Positions 1,483-54,978 of a stretch of DNA of 64,000 nt are shown here, piece by piece. The position numbers and the translations under genes are program-made. Under the pieces are notes generated by a model, which made no database searches, was not told the origin of the DNA, and saw nothing but the letters and a program-made list of their open reading frames with translations. Numbering within the stretch: position 1 is the first letter of the stretch; the number at the start of each line of letters is the position of its first letter. The stretch spans positions 125,702 through 189,701 of the forward strand of contig JAPLLX010000006.1 in the NCBI GenBank assembly GCA_026387335.1, in the 5' to 3' direction. The stretch comes from Candidatus Omnitrophota bacterium. GTDB lineage: Bacteria > Omnitrophota > Gorgyraeia > Gygaellales > Profunditerraquicolaceae.

Positions 1483-1535
1483 TGCCCCTAAGGGCACACC
1501 CGCGCAATTCCTTATAAGCGCGGGGTGTGTTTTTT
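1483..1535 (-). promoter_or_regulatory. Dual-hairpin 5' leader element directly upstream of the tuf RBS (copy 1 of 2)
   Basis: mRNA sense: CACACCCCGCGC-loop-GCGCGGGTGTG, then TGCCC-TTAG-GGGCA abutting AAGGAGGAG, then ATG. A second copy with compensatory stem changes is at 25745..25786. Confidence 0.5.
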
Positions 1536-3636
1536 AACGAAAACTCTTCCTGGTCGAACCGGTAGCGGCGAAACCCGTAACGATCTTTTCTGCTATATGT
1601 GCAGGCACTTCGGTGTAAAACGAAGGCTCTATTGTATAGGATGCGCGGCCCTGTGTCAAGGATCTTATTATAGTCGCGTAATTAAAAACTTCAGCTAGCG
1701 GAATGTTCGCGCGTATGGTGCGTAAGTTCAGGCGCTGGGCCAAGGAAATTATTTTGGCCCGTCGGGAACTCAAATCCCCGATAACCTGGCCCATAAACTC
1801 TTCCGGGACAACTACTTCCATATCCATAATCGGCTCCAATAAAACAGGGTTGCCTTTTTTTAAACCGTCATTAAATGCCAGCGAGCCGGCCATCTGAAAC
1901 GCTAATTCCGAAGAATCAACTTCATGAAAAGACCCGTCGATTAAAAGGACTTTGACATCGGTAACCGGATACCCGGCTAAGACGCCGGATTTTGCCGCGC
2001 CAAATACCCCCTGCTTTACTGCCGGTATATATTCACGCGGGATAGACCCGCTTTTAATTTTATCTTCAAAAGTAATCCCTGTCCCAGGGGTCTCCTGCGG
2101 TTCCATCTCAATAACGCAATGCCCATATTGGCCGCGGCCGCCGGACTGGGAGATAAACTTGCCCACTGACCTTACTTTTTTCCTTAAGGTTTCCCGGTAG
2201 GCTACCTGAGGCTGGCCTACCTGAGCTTCAACGTTAAATTCGCGTAAAATCCTGTCAATAATTATCTCCAGATGTAACTGACCCATACCCGCGATAAGAG
2301 TCTGTCCGGTCTCCTGATTATAAGTTACGCGGAAAGACGGATCCTCATCTTCAAGTTTATGTAAGGCTAACCCCAATTTCTCCTGAGCGTCCTTAGATGC
2401 CGGCTCAATGGCCTGCTGAATAACCGGCTCAGGGAAACGCATTGCTTCAATTAATATATGGTTATTTTCCGTGCACAGAGTTTCTCCGGTCTTAGTATCT
2501 TTTAATCCCACCAGAGCCGCGATCTCACCGCAAGAAATACTCTCTACAACTTCCTGACGGTTAGCGTGCATCTTAACGATCTTGGTGACTCTTTCTCTTT
2601 CTCTTTTAGAAGCGTTATAGATATATGTACCGGAACTTAAAACCCCTGAATATACCCGGGTAAAGAATATTTTTCCGACATAAGGGTCAGTGGCTACCTT
2701 AAAACATAACGCGCAGAAAGGCGCTTTTTCAGAAGCCTTGATCTCTTCAAATTCGCCTGTTTCCGGATTTGTCCCTTTAATCGCCGGAACATCAACAGGA
2801 GAAGGCAGATAATCTTTTACCGCGTCGAGTACCAGTTGGACCCCTTTATTTTTAAAAGCCGCTCCGCAAAGGACCGGAACAAATTTATTGGCAATAACGC
2901 TCTTTCTTATCGCGGTTTTCAATTCCGCAACCGGTATATCCTTGCCGTGTAAATAATCTTCCATTATCTTATCATCGACTTCAGCCAACCTCTCAAGCAT
3001 GACCGTGCGCTGTTTGTCGGCTTCTGGCAAAGCCTGCGCAGGGATCTCCTGGATTTCAAAATCTTTACCTAAATCATCTTTATAATAAATAAGTTTCTTT
3101 TCCACTAAATCTATGATGCCTTTAAACTCCCCGTCTTTTCCGAAAGGAAGCTGGATGGGAGCAGCATTTGCGCCTAACCTCTTATGCATCTGGTCTATGG
3201 CCTCCAGGAAATTAGCGCCGGTCCTATCCATTTTATTTACAAAAGCGATCCGCGGGACTTCATAGCGGTCAGCCTGGCGCCAGACTGTCTCGGATTGCGG
3301 CTCGACTCCGCCTACTCCGCAGAAAACCACTACTGCGCCGTCTAAAACCTTCAACGATCTTTCAACTTCAATAGTAAAATCCACGTGGCCGGGAGTATCA
3401 ATAAGGTTAATATGTACATCTTTCCAGATGCAGGTAGTCGCGGCCGCGGTAATCGTAATGCCTCTCTCCTGCTCCTGGACCATCCAGTCCATGGTCGCCG
3501 TCCCTTCATGGACTTCCCCTAATTTATAATTTCTACCGGTATAAAAAAGGATGCGCTCGCTGGTTGTAGTTTTCCCAGCGTCAATATGGGCGATAATCCC
3601 GATATTCCTGATTTTTTCTAATGGAACTTTTTCCAT
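1534..3636 (-). CDS. fusA: Elongation factor G
   Basis: 700 aa; [23 protein letters not shown], and EF-G domains IV/V. Confidence 0.97.
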
Positions 3637-14547: not shown

Positions 14548-14738
14548 TATTTAAATAAAAGGCTTAATAACTTGGAGAGGAATACATCCAGTACCCCGAT
14601 AAAAACACCCAAAGCTACAGTGACTACGATGACGACCAGGGTGGAAGCTAATAATTCTTCGCGGGTGCTCCAGGCGACCTTTCCCAGTTCTGCCTTAACC
14701 TCTTTTATAAAATTAACAGGTTTTGCGAATATTCCCAT
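14547..14738 (-). CDS. secE: Preprotein translocase subunit SecE
   Basis: 63 aa, single TM helix, immediately upstream of nusG and downstream of tRNA-Trp. Confidence 0.8.
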   Translation of the reverse strand: MGIFAKPVNFIKEVKAELGKVAWSTREELLASTLVVIVVTVALGVFIGVLDVFLSKLLSLLFK

Positions 14739-14776
14739 AACTTACTCTTTTTTTACCCTCTACCGCTTTCTAACTA

Positions 14777-14847
14777 CAGGAGCGGCAGGACTTGAACCTG
14801 CAGTCACGGTTTTGGAGACCGTTGGTTTGCCATTAACCGACGCCCCT
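14777..14847 (-). tRNA. tRNA-Trp (anticodon CCA)
   Basis: Minus-strand sequence AGGGGCGTCGGTTAATGGCAAACCAACGGTCTCCAAAACCGTGACTGCAGGTTCAAGTCCTGCCGCTCCTG folds as a cloverleaf: 7-bp acceptor, anticodon loop CTCCAAA, and T-arm GGTTCAAGTCC. Canonical position upstream of secE. Confidence 0.85.
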
Positions 14848-15014
14848 ATCATTAGTTATTTCGTTTCTTTATGCGGGGTATGCTTATGACAGGACTTACA
14901 GAATTTACTGATTTCTAAACGGTCCTGATGCAGTTTTTTATTTTTTGTCGTCGTATAATTTCTATTTTTGCAAACCGTACACTCTAATGTGATTATTTCG
15001 CGCATATAATTTTA

Positions 15015-15087
15015 AGCTGGAGACGAGAATTGAACTCGTGACCCCGTCCTTACCAAGGACGTGCTCTGCCAACTGAGCTACTCCAGC
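15015..15087 (-). tRNA. tRNA-Thr (anticodon GGT)
   Basis: Minus-strand GCTGGAGTAGCTCAGTTGGCAGAGCACGTCCTTGGTAAGGACGGGGTCACGAGTTCAATTCTCGTCTCCAGCT; anticodon loop TTGGTAA; T-loop GAGTTCAATTCTC. Confidence 0.85.
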
Positions 15088-15232
15088 ATTTTTTTTGTTG
15101 GATACCTTGCCGGAGAAATTATCCTAAATATAAAAAAAAACCCACCAGAAGAATTCAAAAAAAAGAATTCTCTTTGTTCCCTTTTATCCTGTAATTAAAG
15201 TATTATGAATCCTGAATTTACGTGAGCAATAG

Positions 15233-15261
15233 AATATATACCGGATTGGCGGGTTTGTCAA
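15233..15261 (-). promoter_or_regulatory. Candidate sigma70 promoter for the tRNA-Thr/tRNA-Trp/secE-nusG-rplKAJL-rpoBC transcription unit
   Basis: Minus strand TTGACA (15256-15261), a 17-nt spacer, then TATATT (15233-15238). It overlaps the rsmA stop codon, about 145 nt upstream of tRNA-Thr. Confidence 0.5.
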
Positions 15262-22046: not shown

Positions 22047-22322
22047 TTACGCTTTTTTAATAACCGCTATGCAATTCTTTTCCAGCTCAATCTTTACATT
22101 CTCATCTATTCTTAAGATTATTGTTTTTTCTTTGACATTGACAATAGTCCCGTGTATTCCGCTGGAAGTGACTACTTCGTCATTTTTATTAAGATTACCC
22201 AGCATCTTCTGGTGCTCTTTTTCCTTCTGTCTTTGCGGCCGGATCAGCATAAAATAAAAAATAACAAAAATAAGCGCTAAAGGAACCAGATTAATTATCG
22301 AGTTAGTTGCTTGAGGCTGCAT
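22047..22322 (-). CDS. yajC: Preprotein translocase subunit YajC
   Basis: 91 aa; LALIFVIFYFMLIRPQRQKEKEHQKML is the YajC signature. Confidence 0.85.
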   Translation of the reverse strand: MQPQATNSIINLVPLALIFVIFYFMLIRPQRQKEKEHQKMLGNLNKNDEVVTSSGIHGTIVNVKEKTIILRIDENVKIELEKNCIAVIKKA

Positions 22323-22560
22323 TTTTCTTCTCCTTCTTTATAAGGCTCTTAACGGTGGCTGAAACTTGAGCGCCATTTTTAATCCAATACTGGATTCGCT
22401 CTGACTTTAATCTTGCCTCACCGGTTGTAGGAACATAGAACCCCAACTCTTCCAGGACTCTGCCGTCCCGGCCGGTTCGCTCATCATAAGCGGCAACCCG
22501 GAAATGCGGCTTACCTTTGGGATTTTTTCCGATTCTTCTTAAACGAATATGAACCGCCAT
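22303..22560 (-). CDS. rpsP: 30S ribosomal protein S16
   Basis: 85 aa; MAVHIRLRRIGKNPKGKPHFRVAAYDERTGRDG. Confidence 0.9.
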   Translation of the reverse strand: MAVHIRLRRIGKNPKGKPHFRVAAYDERTGRDGRVLEELGFYVPTTGEARLKSERIQYWIKNGAQVSATVKSLIKKEKKNAASSN

Positions 22561-22710
22561 TTTTTACTCCTCCTATAATAAATTGTTAATATCCAATCAC
22601 CAAATCCCAATGTCAAATGAAATCCCAATGACCCAATGTCCAGATTGGGACTTGAGATTTGAAGTTTCATTCGTCATTGAAACTTGGATATTGGTCATTT
22701 ACCAGTATTA

Positions 22711-24192: not shown

Positions 24193-24524
24193 TTTATCTT
24201 CCTAAAAAAACAACTTCTATTTCCCGTGTGGCAAGCTACGCCTACTTGGCGCACCTTGATTAAAAGCGCGTCCAGATCACAGTCATATTGAATGGATTTG
24301 ACAAATTGAAAATGCCCGCTAGTCGAGCCTTTGACCCAATACTCTTTACGCGAGCGCGACCAAAAACAGGTCTTGCCCATCTTTATGGTCCGGCGCATTG
24401 ACTCTTTGTTCATATAGGCCAGCATCAGCACTTCGCCTGTTTTATAATCCTGTATTATTGCCGGGATTAATCCGGATTTATCAAACTTAAAATCGCTTAA
24501 ACTAACCTTGGCTTTTTTTATCAT
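24189..24524 (-). CDS. hisI: Phosphoribosyl-AMP cyclohydrolase
   Basis: 111 aa; HisI-only domain (LIPAIIQD...MLAYMN...CHTGNRSCF). Confidence 0.85.
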
Positions 24525-25276
24525 AATCTAACCGGGATTCCCTTCTCCCTTAAATATTCCTTTACCTGTTTTATGGAATACGTCCCGTAATGGAATAGCG
24601 ACGCGGCCAGAGCGGCATCCGCTCCAGTCTGAGCAAAGCATTCATAAAAATCTTCCAGCTTTCCCGCTCCCCCCGAAGCAATAACCGGAACAGTTACTGC
24701 CGAACTTATTGTTTTAGTCAGAGCTAGATCATACCCGTCCTTGGTCCCATCATAATCCATGCTAGTCAGAAGAATTTCGCCAGCTCCAAATTCGGCTCCC
24801 TGTTTTGCCCACTCTAGGGCATCCAAACCCGTCGGAGTCCTGCCTCCGTTAACATAGACTTCCCAACCTTCTTTAACTTTCTTAGCATCAATAGCCAGGA
24901 CAATACACTGGCTACCGAATTTCTTGGATGCATCCTTAATCAACTCCGGAAACCTCACCGCCTGAGTATTTATAGATACCTTTTCTGCCCCGGCGTTTAA
25001 AAGATTTCTTATATCGGCTAAGTCGCCGACTCCACCGCCGACAGTAAAAGGCATAAAAATATTCTTGGCTATGTTTTCTACCAACTCTACGAGGGTCTTG
25101 CGTTTTTCCACGCTGGCAGTAATATCCAGAAAAACCAGTTCATCCGCCTCTTGAGCATCGTAGAGCTTGGCTACACTTACAGGGTCGCCGGCGTCTTTTA
25201 GGCCCAGAAACTTTACGCCTTTTACCACCCTGCCGTCTTTAATATCCAGGCACGGTATAATTCGTTTAGCAAGCAT
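24521..25276 (-). CDS. hisF: Imidazole glycerol phosphate synthase cyclase subunit
   Basis: 251 aa; [16 protein letters not shown] and SGGAG motifs. Confidence 0.93.
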
Positions 25277-25281
25277 AACTG

Positions 25282-25734
25282 TTATTTTGTTTTTTGATTC
25301 AGGTACTCGCCTAACAAAGCCCAGGTTTTCTTATTGGCCTTGCCGTTAATTGTTAAATTATTCGCTTTCTGGAACGCTTTTAGCGCCTCACGGGTCTGTT
25401 TACCCATATGGCCGTCAATGTTTCCCGGGTCATAACCGGCATTTTTCAAAGCTGTCTGAACATCTTTTACCTTAGGATGTTTAACGCTGGCTGACTTTTC
25501 TTTAACCTGCGCCGCTTCTGCTTCAACCTTAGCTTGTTGCTCATTAGCCTTATTTAAAGCCTCCTGTAATCCACTGATCTCCTGATCCTTGCTTTGAACC
25601 TGCGCTTCTAAAACCGAGACTTTATTCTTTAAACCCTGCATCTCCAAATCTTTCTGTTTGCCTGCGGTAGCGCATCCAGCCAGCGATATAGTAAATACAG
25701 TTATAAACACAACAACAAATACTTTCTTAAACAT
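25282..25734 (-). CDS. Lipoprotein with coiled-coil region and C-terminal peptidoglycan-binding (PG_binding_1-like) domain
   Basis: Probable true start is [21 protein letters not shown] (lipobox LAGC) at 25734, with AAGGAGGAAAC as RBS. The ORF-track start at 25761 translates the leader hairpin. C-terminal [16 protein letters not shown] matches the PG-binding-1 consensus. Confidence 0.65.
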
Positions 25735-25744
25735 GTTTCCTCCT

Positions 25745-25786
25745 TGCCCACAAGGGCACACCGGCCGATCCGATAAGGCCGGGTGT
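25745..25786 (-). promoter_or_regulatory. Dual-hairpin 5' leader element upstream of the lipoprotein RBS (copy 2 of 2)
   Basis: mRNA sense: ACACCCGGCC-loop-GGCCGGTGTG, then TGCCC-TTGT-GGGCA abutting AAGGAGGAAAC, then ATG. The outer CACACC/GGTGTG and the TGCCC/GGGCA stem are conserved; the inner stem co-varies relative to the copy at 1483..1535. Confidence 0.5.
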
Positions 25787-25792
25787 AACTCC

Positions 25793-26512
25793 CTAAGATA
25801 ATTTTAAGGCCTGAGGTAAAGTAAACTTTCCCTCATACAAAGCCTTACCCACAATAACCGCGCTGACTCCATCTTTCTCTAAACCTTTTAACCTATGTAA
25901 ATCCTCCAAGCTTGAGACTCCTCCTGAGGCGATAATTTTTAAACCGGTTAATTTTAAAAGTTTCTTAAGCTCTTTTATGTTCGGCCCGGTGAGAGTGCCG
26001 TCTTTTAGTGTATCGGTATAAATCAATTCCCTAAATCCCAGCTTCTTTAAATAAAGGCTAAAATTTGCTGCTTCGGTATTTTTATATCCGGTTTTCCAGC
26101 CCCGCACCATAATCTGGCCGTTGGCGGCATCAACTCCCACAATAACCTTATTTTTAAATTTTTTAAAAGCCTTGATTAAGAATTCTTTATCTTCAACGGC
26201 TTGCGTCCCCAAAACTACCCGGGCTACTCCCGCCTTTAAAACATCCTCAATTGCCTCTATATCCCTAATTCCCCCTCCGAATTCCACCGGAACTTTAATC
26301 TGTTTGGCTATCTCCTTAACCACCCCTAAATTCTTAGGCTTACCGCTAAAAGCTCCGTCAAGATCCACTATATGCAAAAATTTCGCTCCCTGAGCCACCC
26401 AATGCTTGGCGACTTTAAGCGGGTCTTTGGAATAAACCTTTTTATTGGATCTACCTTGCACAAATCTTACCACGCAACCGTCTTTTAAATCTATCGCCGG
26501 AATAATCAACAT
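25793..26512 (-). CDS. hisA: 1-(5-phosphoribosyl)-5-[(5-phosphoribosylamino)methylideneamino]imidazole-4-carboxamide isomerase
   Basis: 239 aa; HisA family (IIPAIDLKDG ... GGGIRD). Confidence 0.9.
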   Translation of the reverse strand: MLIIPAIDLKDGCVVRFVQGRSNKKVYSKDPLKVAKHWVAQGAKFLHIVDLDGAFSGKPKNLGVVKEIAKQIKVPVEFGGGIRDIEAIEDVLKAGVARVVLGTQAVEDKEFLIKAFKKFKNKVIVGVDAANGQIMVRGWKTGYKNTEAANFSLYLKKLGFRELIYTDTLKDGTLTGPNIKELKKLLKLTGLKIIASGGVSSLEDLHRLKGLEKDGVSAVIVGKALYEGKFTLPQALKLS

Positions 26513-27114
26513 AGGTTAACAAAGTTCTCCAACATCTTTAAACCGATCCTTTGGCTTTTTTCAGGGTGAAATTGCGCGCCGTATACATTGCCCTTGCAGA
26601 CAACACAAGAAAAATCAATCCCGTAGCCGCAAACCGCCGCATTTACATCTTTTTCATCCGGCTCAGGATAATAAGAATGGCAGAAATAGGCGTAGGCAGC
26701 ATCCGGAATATCTTTTAACAATAAACATCCGCTTTTGGTTATCTTTAGCTGGTTCCAGCCCATATGGGGAACCTTTAAATTTTTAACGGAAAACTTCTTT
26801 ACCGCGCCTTTGATTAACCCCAAGCCCTTGCGTTTAGGCGCCTCTTCACTTTTTTCAAATAAAAGCTGCATACCTAAACAGATCCCTAAGAATGGTTTTT
26901 TATTTTTTACCTCATTTTTAATTATAGCAGACAAACCCTGTTTATCCAGTTCCTCCATTGCGTCGCCAAATGCGCCTACTCCGGGCAAGACTATTTTCCG
27001 ACAGGCGGCAATTTCCTTAGGGTTATTACTGACCTTAGTTTTAGCGCCGTAAAGTTCCAGCGCCTTTTTTACGCTATGAATATTACCCATACCGTAATCA
27101 ATTATCGCGATCAT
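26506..27114 (-). CDS. hisH: Imidazole glycerol phosphate synthase glutaminase subunit
   Basis: 202 aa; class-I glutamine amidotransferase with the GICLGMQ catalytic Cys. Confidence 0.9.
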   Translation of the reverse strand: MIAIIDYGMGNIHSVKKALELYGAKTKVSNNPKEIAACRKIVLPGVGAFGDAMEELDKQGLSAIIKNEVKNKKPFLGICLGMQLLFEKSEEAPKRKGLGLIKGAVKKFSVKNLKVPHMGWNQLKITKSGCLLLKDIPDAAYAYFCHSYYPEPDEKDVNAAVCGYGIDFSCVVCKGNVYGAQFHPEKSQRIGLKMLENFVNLC

Positions 27115-37594: not shown

Positions 37595-37608
37595 GTTTTC
37601 TCCTTAAT

Positions 37609-37788
37609 CTAATGCTGTTGGGACTGGTTCTCCAGCCACGCGTCAATTTTATCTTTTTTAAACCGCCACTGCCCTACTAATTTCAGCGCAGGGATCTTAT
37701 TATGTTTTACCCAATCATAAATAGTCCGGCGGGTAACTTTCAGGTAACCCGCTAAATCTTCAATCGTCATTAATCCGCTGCTGAGCAT
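37609..37788 (-). CDS. Small excisionase/MerR-type helix-turn-helix DNA-binding protein (59 aa; below the ORF-track length cutoff)
   Basis: Minus-strand ORF MLSSGLMTIEDLAGYLKVTRRTIYDWVKHNKIPALKLVGQWRFKKDKIDAWLENQSQQH, a classic AlpA/excisionase-family HTH. RBS AAGGAGAAG; its stop is 14 nt upstream of the smc start. Confidence 0.7.
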   Translation of the reverse strand: MLSSGLMTIEDLAGYLKVTRRTIYDWVKHNKIPALKLVGQWRFKKDKIDAWLENQSQQH

Positions 37789-37817
37789 ATCTTCTCCTTA
37801 AAGGAACAATTGTTCAC

Positions 37818-37846
37818 ATTATAGGGAAAGAAATAATTCTTGTCAA
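37818..37846 (-). promoter_or_regulatory. Perfect consensus sigma70 promoter driving the HTH gene (and probably smc)
   Basis: Minus strand TTGACA (37841-37846), an exactly 17-nt spacer, then TATAAT (37818-37823), followed by RBS AAGGAG and the ATG at 37788. The -35 lies inside an inverted repeat TTGTCAAGG / CCTTGACA (37840-37870). Confidence 0.65.
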
Positions 37847-37961
37847 GGAAAATCTTAACATCCCTTGACATAAAGATGCAATTAGGGCTATTATGTTGAT
37901 AAATGATGCAGGAATATGCTAAATAATCTTAGCATTAACTCTATGGCGGGCAATGACTTAT

Positions 37962-53833: not shown

Positions 53834-54978
53834 TTAATTAAGCAATTGCCGGGTCCCGTAAATTTTAGTAAACAAGCGGTTCCGGTGAAGTTTTCTTTCT
53901 ATTTCGAGAAAGGTATGGATATAAATCTGAGACAAGCGGCAGAATTGGGGAAAGTAGCGCTTAAAATCTAAGCCCCAAGAAGAAAAATAAATATAATGCC
54001 CAACCGGGCAGAAGCAGTATCTTAAATATTTACATCTATTGCAATCCTTACCGGTTAATTCCCTTATTTCTTTTCTCTTTTGGGCTAAGAGCTTAAGCCG
54101 TAAACGGTTATTTATCCCTTTATGGATATCCCCGATAATAAATTTTTTTCTTTCCGGCTGGGCTATAGAAAATACTTTATCGCAGCAATAAAAATTCCCC
54201 TCCCAACCTAAGTGGATTTTCTGGCAACGAATGGGTTTATAAAGCCCTTTTCCTCTTATAAATGTACCCAATAAAGAATTTTCAAAAATATCTTTACTAT
54301 CTTTGGCTTTCTCAAAGATAGAGATATAGAAATCGCTAAACTCCCGGAATGCTGATTCGGCTTTATCTAAGCCAGCTTTTGACCATTGGGTGTAAAGGTT
54401 AGGGAAGAAATTAATGCGGTTAAACCCCAGATTCCGGAGATATTTTATATTTTTGAGCAGGCCGCTGATTGTCTGAGGCGTAAAGACTAAAGCGGAATAT
54501 ATTTTATGTCTGGTGTTATCCAGATCCAGTCGCTTTAAGTTCCCGGCTAGGCGATCATGACTAGAGCCATATGCTTTGCGCTTGAAAGGACGGTTGGAGT
54601 CTTGAACCTTTTTCTGGCCGTCTATACTGACTGTGGTTATAATCCTGTTTTCTTTTAAAAAACTTGACCGGCTGGGAGTCAGAAGAGTACCGTTAGTAAC
54701 AACCGTAACCGCTAATTTTGAACTTCCCTTATTCTGCTGAATATAATGATACAGCTTTTTTAACTTTCCAAACCTTAAACAAGGTTCCCCGCCGACAAAA
54801 TTTATACTCTTAGTGTTTCCGGGAGATGTTAAAAAAAAACTACGGCCTTCTTTAACTGCTCAACATCCAGTTCTTTATCTTTACAACTGTCCTTTTTAAC
54901 GAAACAATAATGGCAATCTAAATTACAGTGCTTGGTCAAAAAGATGTTCAACGCCTCGGGATGACTTTCTAACACCAT
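53834..54978 (-). pseudogene. Radical SAM/SPASM maturase (HxsC-like position) interrupted by a single-base frameshift in a T9 homopolymer (54831-54839)
   Basis: From the ATG at 54976-54978: MVLESHPEALNIFLTKHCNLDCHYCFVKK...VVFF then stop. Reading on in the +2 frame through the T-run gives FFLTSPGNTKSINFVGGEP... and runs continuously into the annotated C-terminal fragment (53834..54271, CCDK...CNRCKYLRYCFCP). One extra T (T10) would restore an intact protein of about 380 aa. Confidence 0.7.

Follow-up and report, generated by a model that had tools for sequence, protein, structure and literature searches.

A predicted two-hairpin RNA leader family adjoining Shine-Dalgarno sequences in Omnitrophota genomes

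Stable hairpins upstream of a strong Shine-Dalgarno (SD) sequence, such as the 5′ stem-loop of Escherichia coli ompA, the Bacillus subtilis aprE and ermC leaders, the cryIIIA STAB-SD, RiboJ and the Csy4 hairpin, protect the 5′ end of a transcript and insulate its expression. The RAYT-associated REP, BIME and REPIN sequences of proteobacteria are short, GC-rich and imperfectly palindromic, have an unpaired base and are present in tens to hundreds of copies per genome in intergenic regions, often in operons near a stop codon, where they form subfamilies and clusters; REPs affect the stability of the flanking mRNA segments. REPINs are inverted doublets randomly scattered in extragenic space (PMC3116915). 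The ERIC repeats of Yersinia and the NEMIS repeats of Neisseria give cistrons an orientation-dependent stability, through ribosome-triggered RNase E exposure and RNase III cleavage, respectively (PMC2229807). In plastids, intercistronic expression elements (IEEs) and PPR10- or HCF107-type sites yield stable, translatable downstream cistrons with defined RNA ends from operon transcripts (PMC2230500, PMC3326301). Here we describe an element, hereafter the module, that occurs twice in a 64,000-nt stretch of DNA from a Candidatus Omnitrophota bacterium (the window; assembly GCA_026387335.1, contig JAPLLX010000006.1, positions 125,702 to 189,701), upstream of the elongation factor gene tuf and of a lipoprotein gene. 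Judged by its sequence, the module is a member of a large RNA leader family that was found only in Omnitrophota-type genomes and for which searches of Rfam and the literature gave no match.

The minus strand carries nearly all genes of the window, and the module was accordingly read in mRNA sense. An initial annotation had reported two look-alike copies of one architecture, and both were located as it stated on the minus strand, at 1477-1527 in the fusA-tuf spacer (copy 1) and at 25739-25785 in the spacer between hisA and the lipoprotein gene (copy 2). Hairpin 1 of copy 1 consists of a CACC(C)CGCGC arm, the 12-nt loop UUAUAAGGAAUU and nine modelled pairs with one bulged C, and can be extended by an A-U and a C-G pair (1528-1529 with 1495-1496) at the cost of hairpin 2. 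Copy 2 carries a second subtype of hairpin 1, CACC(C)GGCC / 10-nt loop UUAUCGGAUC / GGCCGGUG, which also occurs at four of the loci collected below (L015, L026, L035 and L104). Reading the sequence confirmed that the inner stem differs between the copies while pairing is kept. The annotated CACACC/GGTGTG closure needs two small corrections: in both copies one C of the 5′ arm of hairpin 1 is unpaired, and hairpin 2 also uses the final G of GGTGTG. The TGCCC-N4-GGGCA hairpin lies directly against AAGGAGG in both copies, as had been noted; in copy 1 no linker separates the two hairpins and the closing A of hairpin 2 is the first A of AAGGAGG. The distance from AGGAGG to ATG had been given as 5-6 nt and is actually 7 nt in copy 1 and 4 nt in copy 2. 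Copy 1 occupies the entire 64-nt fusA-tuf spacer, and copy 2 fills its spacer inside a hisH-hisA-lipoprotein gene-hisF cluster (24521-27114, minus strand; Pfam). The lipoprotein gene looks foreign within the his cluster, and the module may be what permits its expression there.

A 16-base pattern covering hairpin 2 and the SD (TGCCCNNNNGGGCAAGGAGG) has exactly two matches in the window against 0.05 expected, a number reached in none of 100 shuffles, and the shared block GGTGTGCCCTTnnGGGCAAGGAGGA is identical between the copies at 23 of 25 positions. When searched with a covariance model of the family (R1, described below), copy 1 scored 77.6 bits (E = 6.6e-28) and copy 2 scored 64.3 bits (E = 9e-23); with filters off, the model found these two copies only in the 64-kb window. 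Folding with RNAfold recovered both hairpins of copy 1 (z = -2.2). For copy 2 the folding check proposed in the initial annotation succeeded in part: hairpin 1 was clear, but the minimum-energy fold swapped hairpin 2 for an alternative (z = -0.5).

To survey the family, we scanned one genome per GTDB species (1.2e12 positions) with the pattern GGTGTGCCCNNNNGGGCAAGGAGG, which has 20 fixed bases. The scan returned 49 loci in 37 assemblies, against about one chance match expected by our arithmetic, and every matching assembly was labelled either Candidatus Omnitrophota/Omnitrophica or as a third-party-annotation 'Planctomycetales' metagenome-assembled genome with Omnitrophota-like genes; the genes of the latter closely match Omnitrophota ones (Skp is 84% identical). 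Hairpin 1 was formed upstream of the core pattern in all of these matches, with inner stems that included CCGCGC/GCGCGG, CCGGCGC/GCGCCGG, CCGGCC/GGCCGG, CCAATC/GATTGG and CCGCGT/ACGCGG. A scan of metagenome contigs anchored on the commonest hairpin 1 only gave at least 120 loci. Among the metagenome matches listed, 73 loci at 36-51% GC carry the element with few exceptions (e.g. L118), hairpin 2 lying directly 3′ of hairpin 1, and 47 high-GC loci, many of which read as coding, were set aside as chance palindromes. A covariance model, which the initial annotation had recommended, was built from 37 simple copies (R1) and recovered the family across related genomes with 62 matches in the window and GTDB loci and 99 in the low-GC metagenome loci. 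The further copies that had been called for thus number 157 distinct modules in 0.84 Mb of Omnitrophota DNA; all family-wide counts below (of 157, 156, 149 or 143) refer to the window, the GTDB loci and the low-GC metagenome loci among the matches listed. Conservation upstream of tuf, also proposed as a check, was borne out: five or more further species (L002, L012, L023, L032 and L047) have the module between fusA and tuf. With two copies per 64 kb in the window and about 11 more in 350 kb of flanks, the density is about one per 32 kb, from which we extrapolate roughly 60-90 copies per genome.

Searches outside this lineage and in existing catalogues gave no relative. The core pattern had no match in viral contigs, and the eight matches of the hairpin-1 pattern there were all chance (49-73% GC, without hairpin 2), so that viral contigs held no true copy. 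At the gathering threshold, Rfam 15 found two tRNAs and nothing else in the whole window. Permissive Rfam scans, run on copy 1 and on one nested copy (L031), yielded weak matches only, all with E of at least 0.13 and far below gathering (SAM-II, 14.3 versus 44 bits; CRISPR-DR57, 17.5 versus 39; whalefall-1, 13.5 versus 37). Full-text literature searches on Omnitrophota/Omnitrophica turned up no description of the element and a single unrelated mention.

The family unit is about 45 nt long. Its hairpin 1 is GC-rich and very stable, with a closing CACC/GGUG, one strongly conserved bulged C, a covarying inner stem and a loop of 8-12 nt (as aligned), and is followed directly by hairpin 2 of the form U-(4-5 bp)-NNGU-(4-5 bp)-A. 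In the R1 alignments, standard pairs filled 97.8-98.6% of cells and 11-13 of the 14 modelled pairs had changed on both sides. Hairpin 1 was 97-99% paired, with both sides changed in 7-8 of its 9 pairs, and all 4-5 pairs of hairpin 2 had changed on both sides in the hairpin-1-anchored set. These values were reached in none of 500 column shuffles, and sliding the 3′ partner by 1-3 columns collapsed pairing to 25-62%. Covariance-model alignments are fitted to the model and are biased in favour of structure; an independent MAFFT alignment gave the same covariation result for hairpin 1, and a simple script, applied to the 72 copies of the hairpin-1-anchored set, found hairpin 2 perfectly paired at offset 0-2 in 66, with 37 different stems. 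Wobble cells comprised 29 G.U/U.G against 10 A.C/C.A, indicating that it is the mRNA-sense strand that folds, and some copies (e.g. L040 and L086) have U.G-rich 5′ arms. The selected RNA structure with compensatory changes that had been proposed from two copies is supported by the covariation of both hairpins in these large alignments.

These results bear on the reading that no family exists and that the two copies are a chance match, an intrinsic terminator or a binding site in duplex DNA, which we regard as scarcely credible. The initial annotation had suggested antisense termination at the run of six T (T6) that follows copy 1 on the plus strand, and this hairpin with its T6 does fold well (z = -3.0). 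The T6 is, however, simply the A-run after the fusA stop codon, which is present at some tuf copies only and is missing from copy 2 and from most copies at other genes. The hairpin plus U-run on the transcribed strand that defines an intrinsic terminator was not found, neither hairpin being followed by a U-run in the sense direction and hairpin 2 giving way to AGGAGG instead. Chance is contradicted by the excess of exact matches in the window and by the 157 family members, and a folded single strand, rather than duplex DNA, is what the wobble pairs and the compensatory changes indicate. An integron attC site, a CRISPR repeat, a riboswitch and a self-cleaving ribozyme were also excluded, the modules having no regular spacing, too many unrelated genes and no Rfam match.

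Besides the closing stem, the loops are strongly conserved. The hairpin-1 loop has the consensus U-N-A-U-N-G-G-W-A-U-U, in which A3, one of the G residues and the terminal UU hardly vary, and the hairpin-2 loop is mostly NNGU. No covariation was detected inside the hairpin-1 loop in the alignment. Base pairs within this loop were rejected, its positions being conserved rather than covarying, and a role of the loop as SD mimic was set aside, the base after GG being A or U and not AG. The near-invariant loop bases suggest a specific reader.

GG is present in 114 and GGA in 85 of the 143 simple hairpin-1 loops, which recalls CsrA/RsmA leaders with their GGA in an upstream hairpin loop and a second GGA in the SD. 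Were the module an operator of a CsrA/RsmA-type repressor, one subunit would occupy the GGA of the hairpin-1 loop and the other that of the SD about 30 nt downstream, and initiation would stay blocked unless titration removed the repressor. The 12-nt loop UUAUAAGGAAUU resembles the CsrA consensus obtained by systematic evolution of ligands by exponential enrichment, RUACARGGAUGU; CsrA dimers bridge two GGA sites over a known distance range, within which the GGA always supplied by the SD falls; and arrays of GGA-loop hairpins recall CsrB/RsmZ-type RNAs. We nevertheless hold an operator of this kind to be decidedly improbable. GGA is absent from 41% of loops (GGU, UGU and UGA variants), the strict CACC/GGUG stem, the bulge and hairpin 2 are left unexplained, and modules also lie next to tRNA genes. 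A tblastn search of 844 kb of Omnitrophota DNA found no homologue of E. coli or B. subtilis CsrA, in a sample that falls well short of one genome equivalent for each species and is too small to exclude one; Hfq likewise had no tblastn match in the sampled Omnitrophota loci, a result that is uninformative at that sample size.

The modules also have a fixed placement. AGGAG(G) followed the last pair of hairpin 2 without a gap in 106 of 156 aligned modules, and any SD-like sequence did so in 117; 112 of the 157 modules had an SD, a start codon and an open reading frame (ORF) downstream, with an SD-to-start spacer of 4-8 nt across the family. Most of the 44 uncoupled modules were upstream, same-orientation members of arrays that end in a coupled module. 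On the other side, an upstream reading frame of 60 or more codons in the same direction had its stop codon within 10 nt of hairpin 1 in 59 of 149 modules and within 20 nt in 76, the rest having longer spacers. The 5′ flank is A/U-rich and single-stranded, its profile contained a purine and stop-codon preference only, and -10-like hexamers upstream of hairpin 1 had no preferred distance and so gave no support for a fixed transcription start. In SD-sequestering switches such as the ROSE and fourU thermometers the SD is paired inside the hairpin; in the canonical module its core begins beyond the final pair of hairpin 2. With known 5′ stabilisers and insulators the module has in common a stable hairpin close upstream of a strong SD, and an SD-exposing effect is predicted for the module; those, however, are single-locus or engineered elements without shared sequence, whereas the module is a natural sequence family that precedes more than 100 gene families.

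The basic architecture has several variants. Among the R1 matches, 18 of 157 were at least 80 nt long, and the majority of these were nested, with a second complete module inserted into the hairpin-1 loop exactly between UUAUAAGG and AAUU. The inner module has the form CACCYGGCSC / UUAUUKGAAUU / GSGCCRGUG followed by UYCCC-UUGY-GGGRA, and the nested form is predicted to fold into a three-way junction that leads into the usual hairpin 2 and SD. Modules also form same-strand tandem arrays (L104, L142, L086 and L067) and, rarely, head-to-head pairs (L074, L109 and L111); of the pairs of neighbours no more than 150 nt apart, 14 were on the same strand and 3 were inverted. In the head-to-head pairs, the copies at L074 4215-4276(-), L109 1806-1867(+) and L111 5681-5742(+) have hairpin 2 as CGCGCU-UUGU-AGCGCG followed by GGGUGUC instead of an SD; this variant stands head-to-head with sense modules, faces the 3′ end of a convergent gene and is kept in three contigs. 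A further variant, with hairpin 2 as UCCUCC-NNGU-GGAGGA and the SD as its 3′ arm, is kept in several species for pgk (L067 434-564, L112 1272-1330 and L134 10470-10528) and argH (L097 264-325 and L136 2390-2451), and is the only form in which the SD lies inside a stem. Where the hairpin-2 loop is UUCU (e.g. L013, L028, L030 and L049), CCUUCU is fully complementary to AGGAGG, and the alternative 6-bp hairpin would hide the SD. Locus L086 (10267-11330) contains a tRNA-Thr/tRNA-Tyr/tRNA-Gly cluster whose Tyr-Gly spacer of about 600 nt is occupied by arrayed nested modules; the final hairpin (CGCGAU-UGGU-AUCGCG) overlaps the first three bases of tRNA-Gly with its 3′ arm. L089 (5721-5834) has the same layout before a tRNA-Gly truncated by the end of the locus. 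At L083 (176-242 and 1458-1521) and L141 (978-1043), the modules have AGGCGGGGC and another GC-rich hairpin after them, with no SD and no nearby ORF start, and may belong to some other non-coding RNA.

We compared modules at the same gene in different species. For genes with a module in several species, four-fold degenerate sites were 16-50% identical in most pairs, which we read as saturation, whereas modules of the same architecture before the same gene were 70-97% identical. The respective identities of four-fold sites and modules were 0.35 and 0.95 for GS-III, 0.49 and 0.97 for tuf, 0.16 and 0.81 for cysK, and 0.25 and 0.83 for nested glnB modules. By these sequence comparisons, modules at orthologous loci are under selection. 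The tuf copies, other species included, have a hairpin-2 loop peculiar to this locus (UUAG, CUAG or CUCG) where UUGU is usual for the family, which points to vertical inheritance at the tuf locus. Some orthologues of tuf, glnB, skp and aroC carry the simple form and others the nested one, indicating that inner modules were gained or lost over time.

This pattern also matters for the possibility that the module is selfish, a non-autonomous repeat of the same kind as REP/REPIN sequences or MITEs (miniature transposable elements with inverted repeats), spread as a single-stranded DNA hairpin by a host transposase, with its start-codon placement reflecting insertion preference or tolerance and any effect on expression being incidental. 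Much of what we observed would suit such a repeat: the high copy number of about one per 32 kb, the distinct subfamilies, the tandem arrays and nesting at one precise loop site (UUAUAAGG | AAUU), the three head-to-head inverted pairs, and the turnover seen in the alternation of simple and nested forms. IS200/IS605-type enzymes recognise hairpins with a bulged base, and the module has a conserved one; single-stranded DNA also tolerates G.T wobble, so that the strand asymmetry is no proof of RNA as the folded molecule. As in REP and REPIN sequences, modules are repeated short GC-rich imperfect palindromes in extragenic space, those examined lying between ORFs. We still judge a selfish repeat quite improbable, given that modules are kept at the same genes across species with saturated synonymous sites, that 68-75% touch the SD at zero spacing, and that their orientation is mostly that of the downstream gene, with 112 of 157 coupled to its start. 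REPINs are random inverted doublets (PMC3116915), whereas Omnitrophota modules are mostly single or same-strand, sense-oriented and SD-fused, with an obligatory second hairpin, conserved loops and retention at orthologues. The flank profile contained neither terminal inverted repeats nor target-site duplications, and true copies were absent from viral contigs.

The same features separate the module from the ERIC/IRU and Correia/NEMIS repeats, with which it shares an intergenic position, probable co-transcription with its neighbours and folding in RNA, and which by analogy may offer the nearest known way of working. Those repeats are MITEs of 100-160 bp with terminal inverted repeats and target duplications, found in both orientations; the module is about 45 nt long, mostly follows the orientation of the downstream gene and ends at its 3′ side in the SD, and nested copies have no duplication at the insertion point. 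In kind, the module is a structured intergenic repeat recruited as a leader, distinct by its two-hairpin unit, invariant loops, SD fusion, self-nesting and orthologous retention. Copies of a repeat held by selection at orthologous genes bear on a long-running debate about intergenic repeats, which may be parasites or may have been recruited as regulators.

The genes behind the modules are diverse. The 94 non-redundant downstream proteins match 104 Pfam families, and those named by Pfam include EF-Tu, Hsp70/DnaK, OmpH/Skp (four members), P-II, GS-III, an ammonium transporter, PGK, chorismate synthase, a pyridoxal-phosphate-dependent PALP protein consistent with CysK, rubrerythrin, ferritin-like/Dps proteins, PilT-type ATPases and a tautomerase. 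Ribosomal protein S1, acyl carrier protein, a cold-shock protein, HU, ClpP, phosphofructokinase, phosphoenolpyruvate carboxykinase, GDH, ATP synthase subunit c and ferredoxin are further candidates, recognised by their N-termini only. Many of the named proteins are abundant in other bacteria.

What we observe is a folded, sense-strand, selected element in fixed geometry by a strong SD, between cistrons and in longer leaders. Its function is best modelled, with confidence that is about evenly balanced, as that of a portable cis-acting leader that provides a structured boundary beside a strong SD, acts after transcription and uncouples the downstream cistron from what precedes it. The module would lock the GC-rich upstream RNA into self-contained helices, setting a helix end beside the SD and leaving the SD and start codon single-stranded. 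In line with this model, the predicted unpaired probability from SD to start was 0.58 in native modules against 0.48 in shuffled ones, the native value being higher in 71 of 91 cases (p = 2e-10). The downstream cistron would gain a structured 5′ boundary that resists 5′-end-dependent decay or marks a processing point, and the downstream gene (EF-Tu after EF-G, or the lipoprotein in the his cluster) would be expressed independently of the preceding gene and probably more strongly. The reader of the module would be a putative protein or the ribosome, and the family would have grown by duplication into tandem and nested forms. The possible roles listed in the initial annotation, namely mRNA stability, translational control, an RNase processing site and a protein-binding site, remain the right shortlist.

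Several observations weigh against this proposal. The gain in accessibility is small, and in part any GC-rich sequence that pairs with itself should produce it. A codon-bias index, for which the window's RNA polymerase and ribosomal genes served as reference, barely separated module-linked genes from their neighbours (means -0.006 versus -0.009; p = 0.046, marginal), so that the description 'highly expressed' rests on gene identity only, and in the covariance-model scan the ribosomal-protein genes of the window carried no module. About 10 modules are antisense to their neighbours or lie without a nearby start codon, the SD inside hairpin 2 of the pgk and argH copies would reduce rather than help initiation, and the conservation of stem sequence exceeds what a simple clamp would need. 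Finally, the two arrays in tRNA spacers that abut tRNA-Gly cannot be explained by a purely translational role; these tRNA-linked copies argue for a role that is at least partly at the transcript level, in processing or stability.

In a different reading, the module is mainly a processing or 'punctuation' signal. A dedicated RNA-binding protein or RNase would recognise the twin hairpin by its loop bases, the polycistron would be cut or trimmed there, and the structured or bound module would define the ends of the products, giving different decay of the flanking cistrons or tRNAs. Half of the modules start within 20 nt of an upstream stop codon, where ribosomes that terminate have to unwind hairpin 1 and by opening it could expose a cleavage site; the A/U-rich single-stranded 5′ flank and loop bases that are invariant without covariation, as expected of protein contact, fit the same picture, as do the modules placed directly against tRNA-Gly in tRNA-operon spacers. 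Plastid intercistronic elements and PPR10 sites that define processed mRNA ends provide precedents (PMC2230500, PMC3326301). They resemble the module in being short intercistronic elements just upstream of the SD or start region, and differ from it as single-stranded protein sites of an organelle, at one or two loci each, whereas the module is a double hairpin at about 3% of genes in free-living or episymbiotic bacteria. As about half of the modules lie in longer intergenic regions with no upstream cistron to separate, and a pure processing signal would not require the tight fusion to the SD, we consider this reading unlikely on the whole.

A broader proposal is offered tentatively. Across their genomes, Omnitrophota may have a post-transcriptional system with a single dedicated factor (a protein, an RNase complex or the ribosome) as reader of the invariant loops; a shared leader would set the processing, stability and initiation of about 3% of cistrons and some tRNAs, and the module would copy itself in tandem and into its own loop. 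Such a system would parallel, in bacteria, the PPR/IEE punctuation of plastids and would be a naturally occurring form of the 'insulated RBS cassette' of synthetic biology (RBS, ribosome-binding site), and an entire uncultivated phylum would drive or tune translation-factor, chaperone, nitrogen-assimilation, glycolysis and oxidative-stress genes with one reusable leader. For annotation, the module provides a new RNA family for Omnitrophota genomes that marks true start codons and operon sub-units. It also offers a testable natural case of uncoupled expression of neighbouring cistrons, a handle for finding the putative reading factor and, for engineering, a candidate compact 'insulated ribosome-binding site' part. 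The coordinates of both copies and their adjoining genes are collected in Table 1.

Table 1. Parts of the two modules in the window and the genes that adjoin them
Feature	Position	Strand	Sequence or detail	Basis
Copy 1, hairpin 1	1497-1527	minus	CACCCCGCGC / loop UUAUAAGGAAUU / GCGCGGGUG	sequence read and fold
Copy 1, hairpin 2	1483-1496	minus	UGCCC-UUAG-GGGCA	sequence read and fold
Copy 1, SD and tuf start codon	1477-1483; ATG 1467-1469	minus	AAGGAGG, 7-nt spacer	sequence read
Copy 1, 5′ flank and fusA stop codon	1528-1536; TAA 1534-1536	minus	A-rich (A-run)
tuf	264-1469	minus	ORF; GTP_EFTU and domains D2, D3	Pfam
fusA	1534-3636	minus	EF-G domains on 1537-3636	Pfam
Copy 2, hairpin 1	25759-25785	minus	CACCCGGCC / UUAUCGGAUC / GGCCGGUG	sequence read
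Copy 2, hairpin 2	25745-25758	minus	UGCCC-UUGU-GGGCA, commonest family form	
Copy 2, SD and lipoprotein start codon	25739-25745; ATG 25732-25734	minus	AAGGAGG, 4-nt spacer	
Copy 2, 5′ flank and hisA stop codon	25786-25795; TAG 25793-25795	minus		
Lipoprotein gene	25282-25734	minus	150 aa; PG_binding_1, E = 3e-19	Pfam
hisA	25793-26512	minus	His_biosynth in both neighbours of the lipoprotein gene, GATase in the upstream gene	Pfam

Other features of the window were noted in passing. A 150-nt intergenic region at 22561-22710, upstream of the gene at 22303-22560, contains several direct copies of CATTGGGA/TTGGGATTT. The apparent 367-nt spacer at 37595-37961 holds a short ORF (MLSSGLMTIEDLAGYLKVTRRTIYDWVKHNKIPALKLVGQWRFKKDKIDAWLENQ...) with its own AAGGAG, which by eye looks like an excisionase-type helix-turn-helix protein. 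The 697-nt 'intergenic' stretch at 54272-54968 carries stop-interrupted fragments of a radical-SAM-type ORF (..LTKHCNLDCHYCF..) and may be a pseudogene or a frameshift. At 14548-15257, tRNA-Thr(GGU) and tRNA-Trp(CCA) lie upstream of an apparent secE-nusG-rplKAJL-rpoBC-rpsLG-fusA-tuf-rpsJ block, in which gene names other than fusA and tuf were taken from ORF order and size, with no second tuf between. Two terminator-like sites consisting of a hairpin and a T-run lie near these tRNA genes, and ordinary intrinsic terminators therefore seem to exist in this organism.

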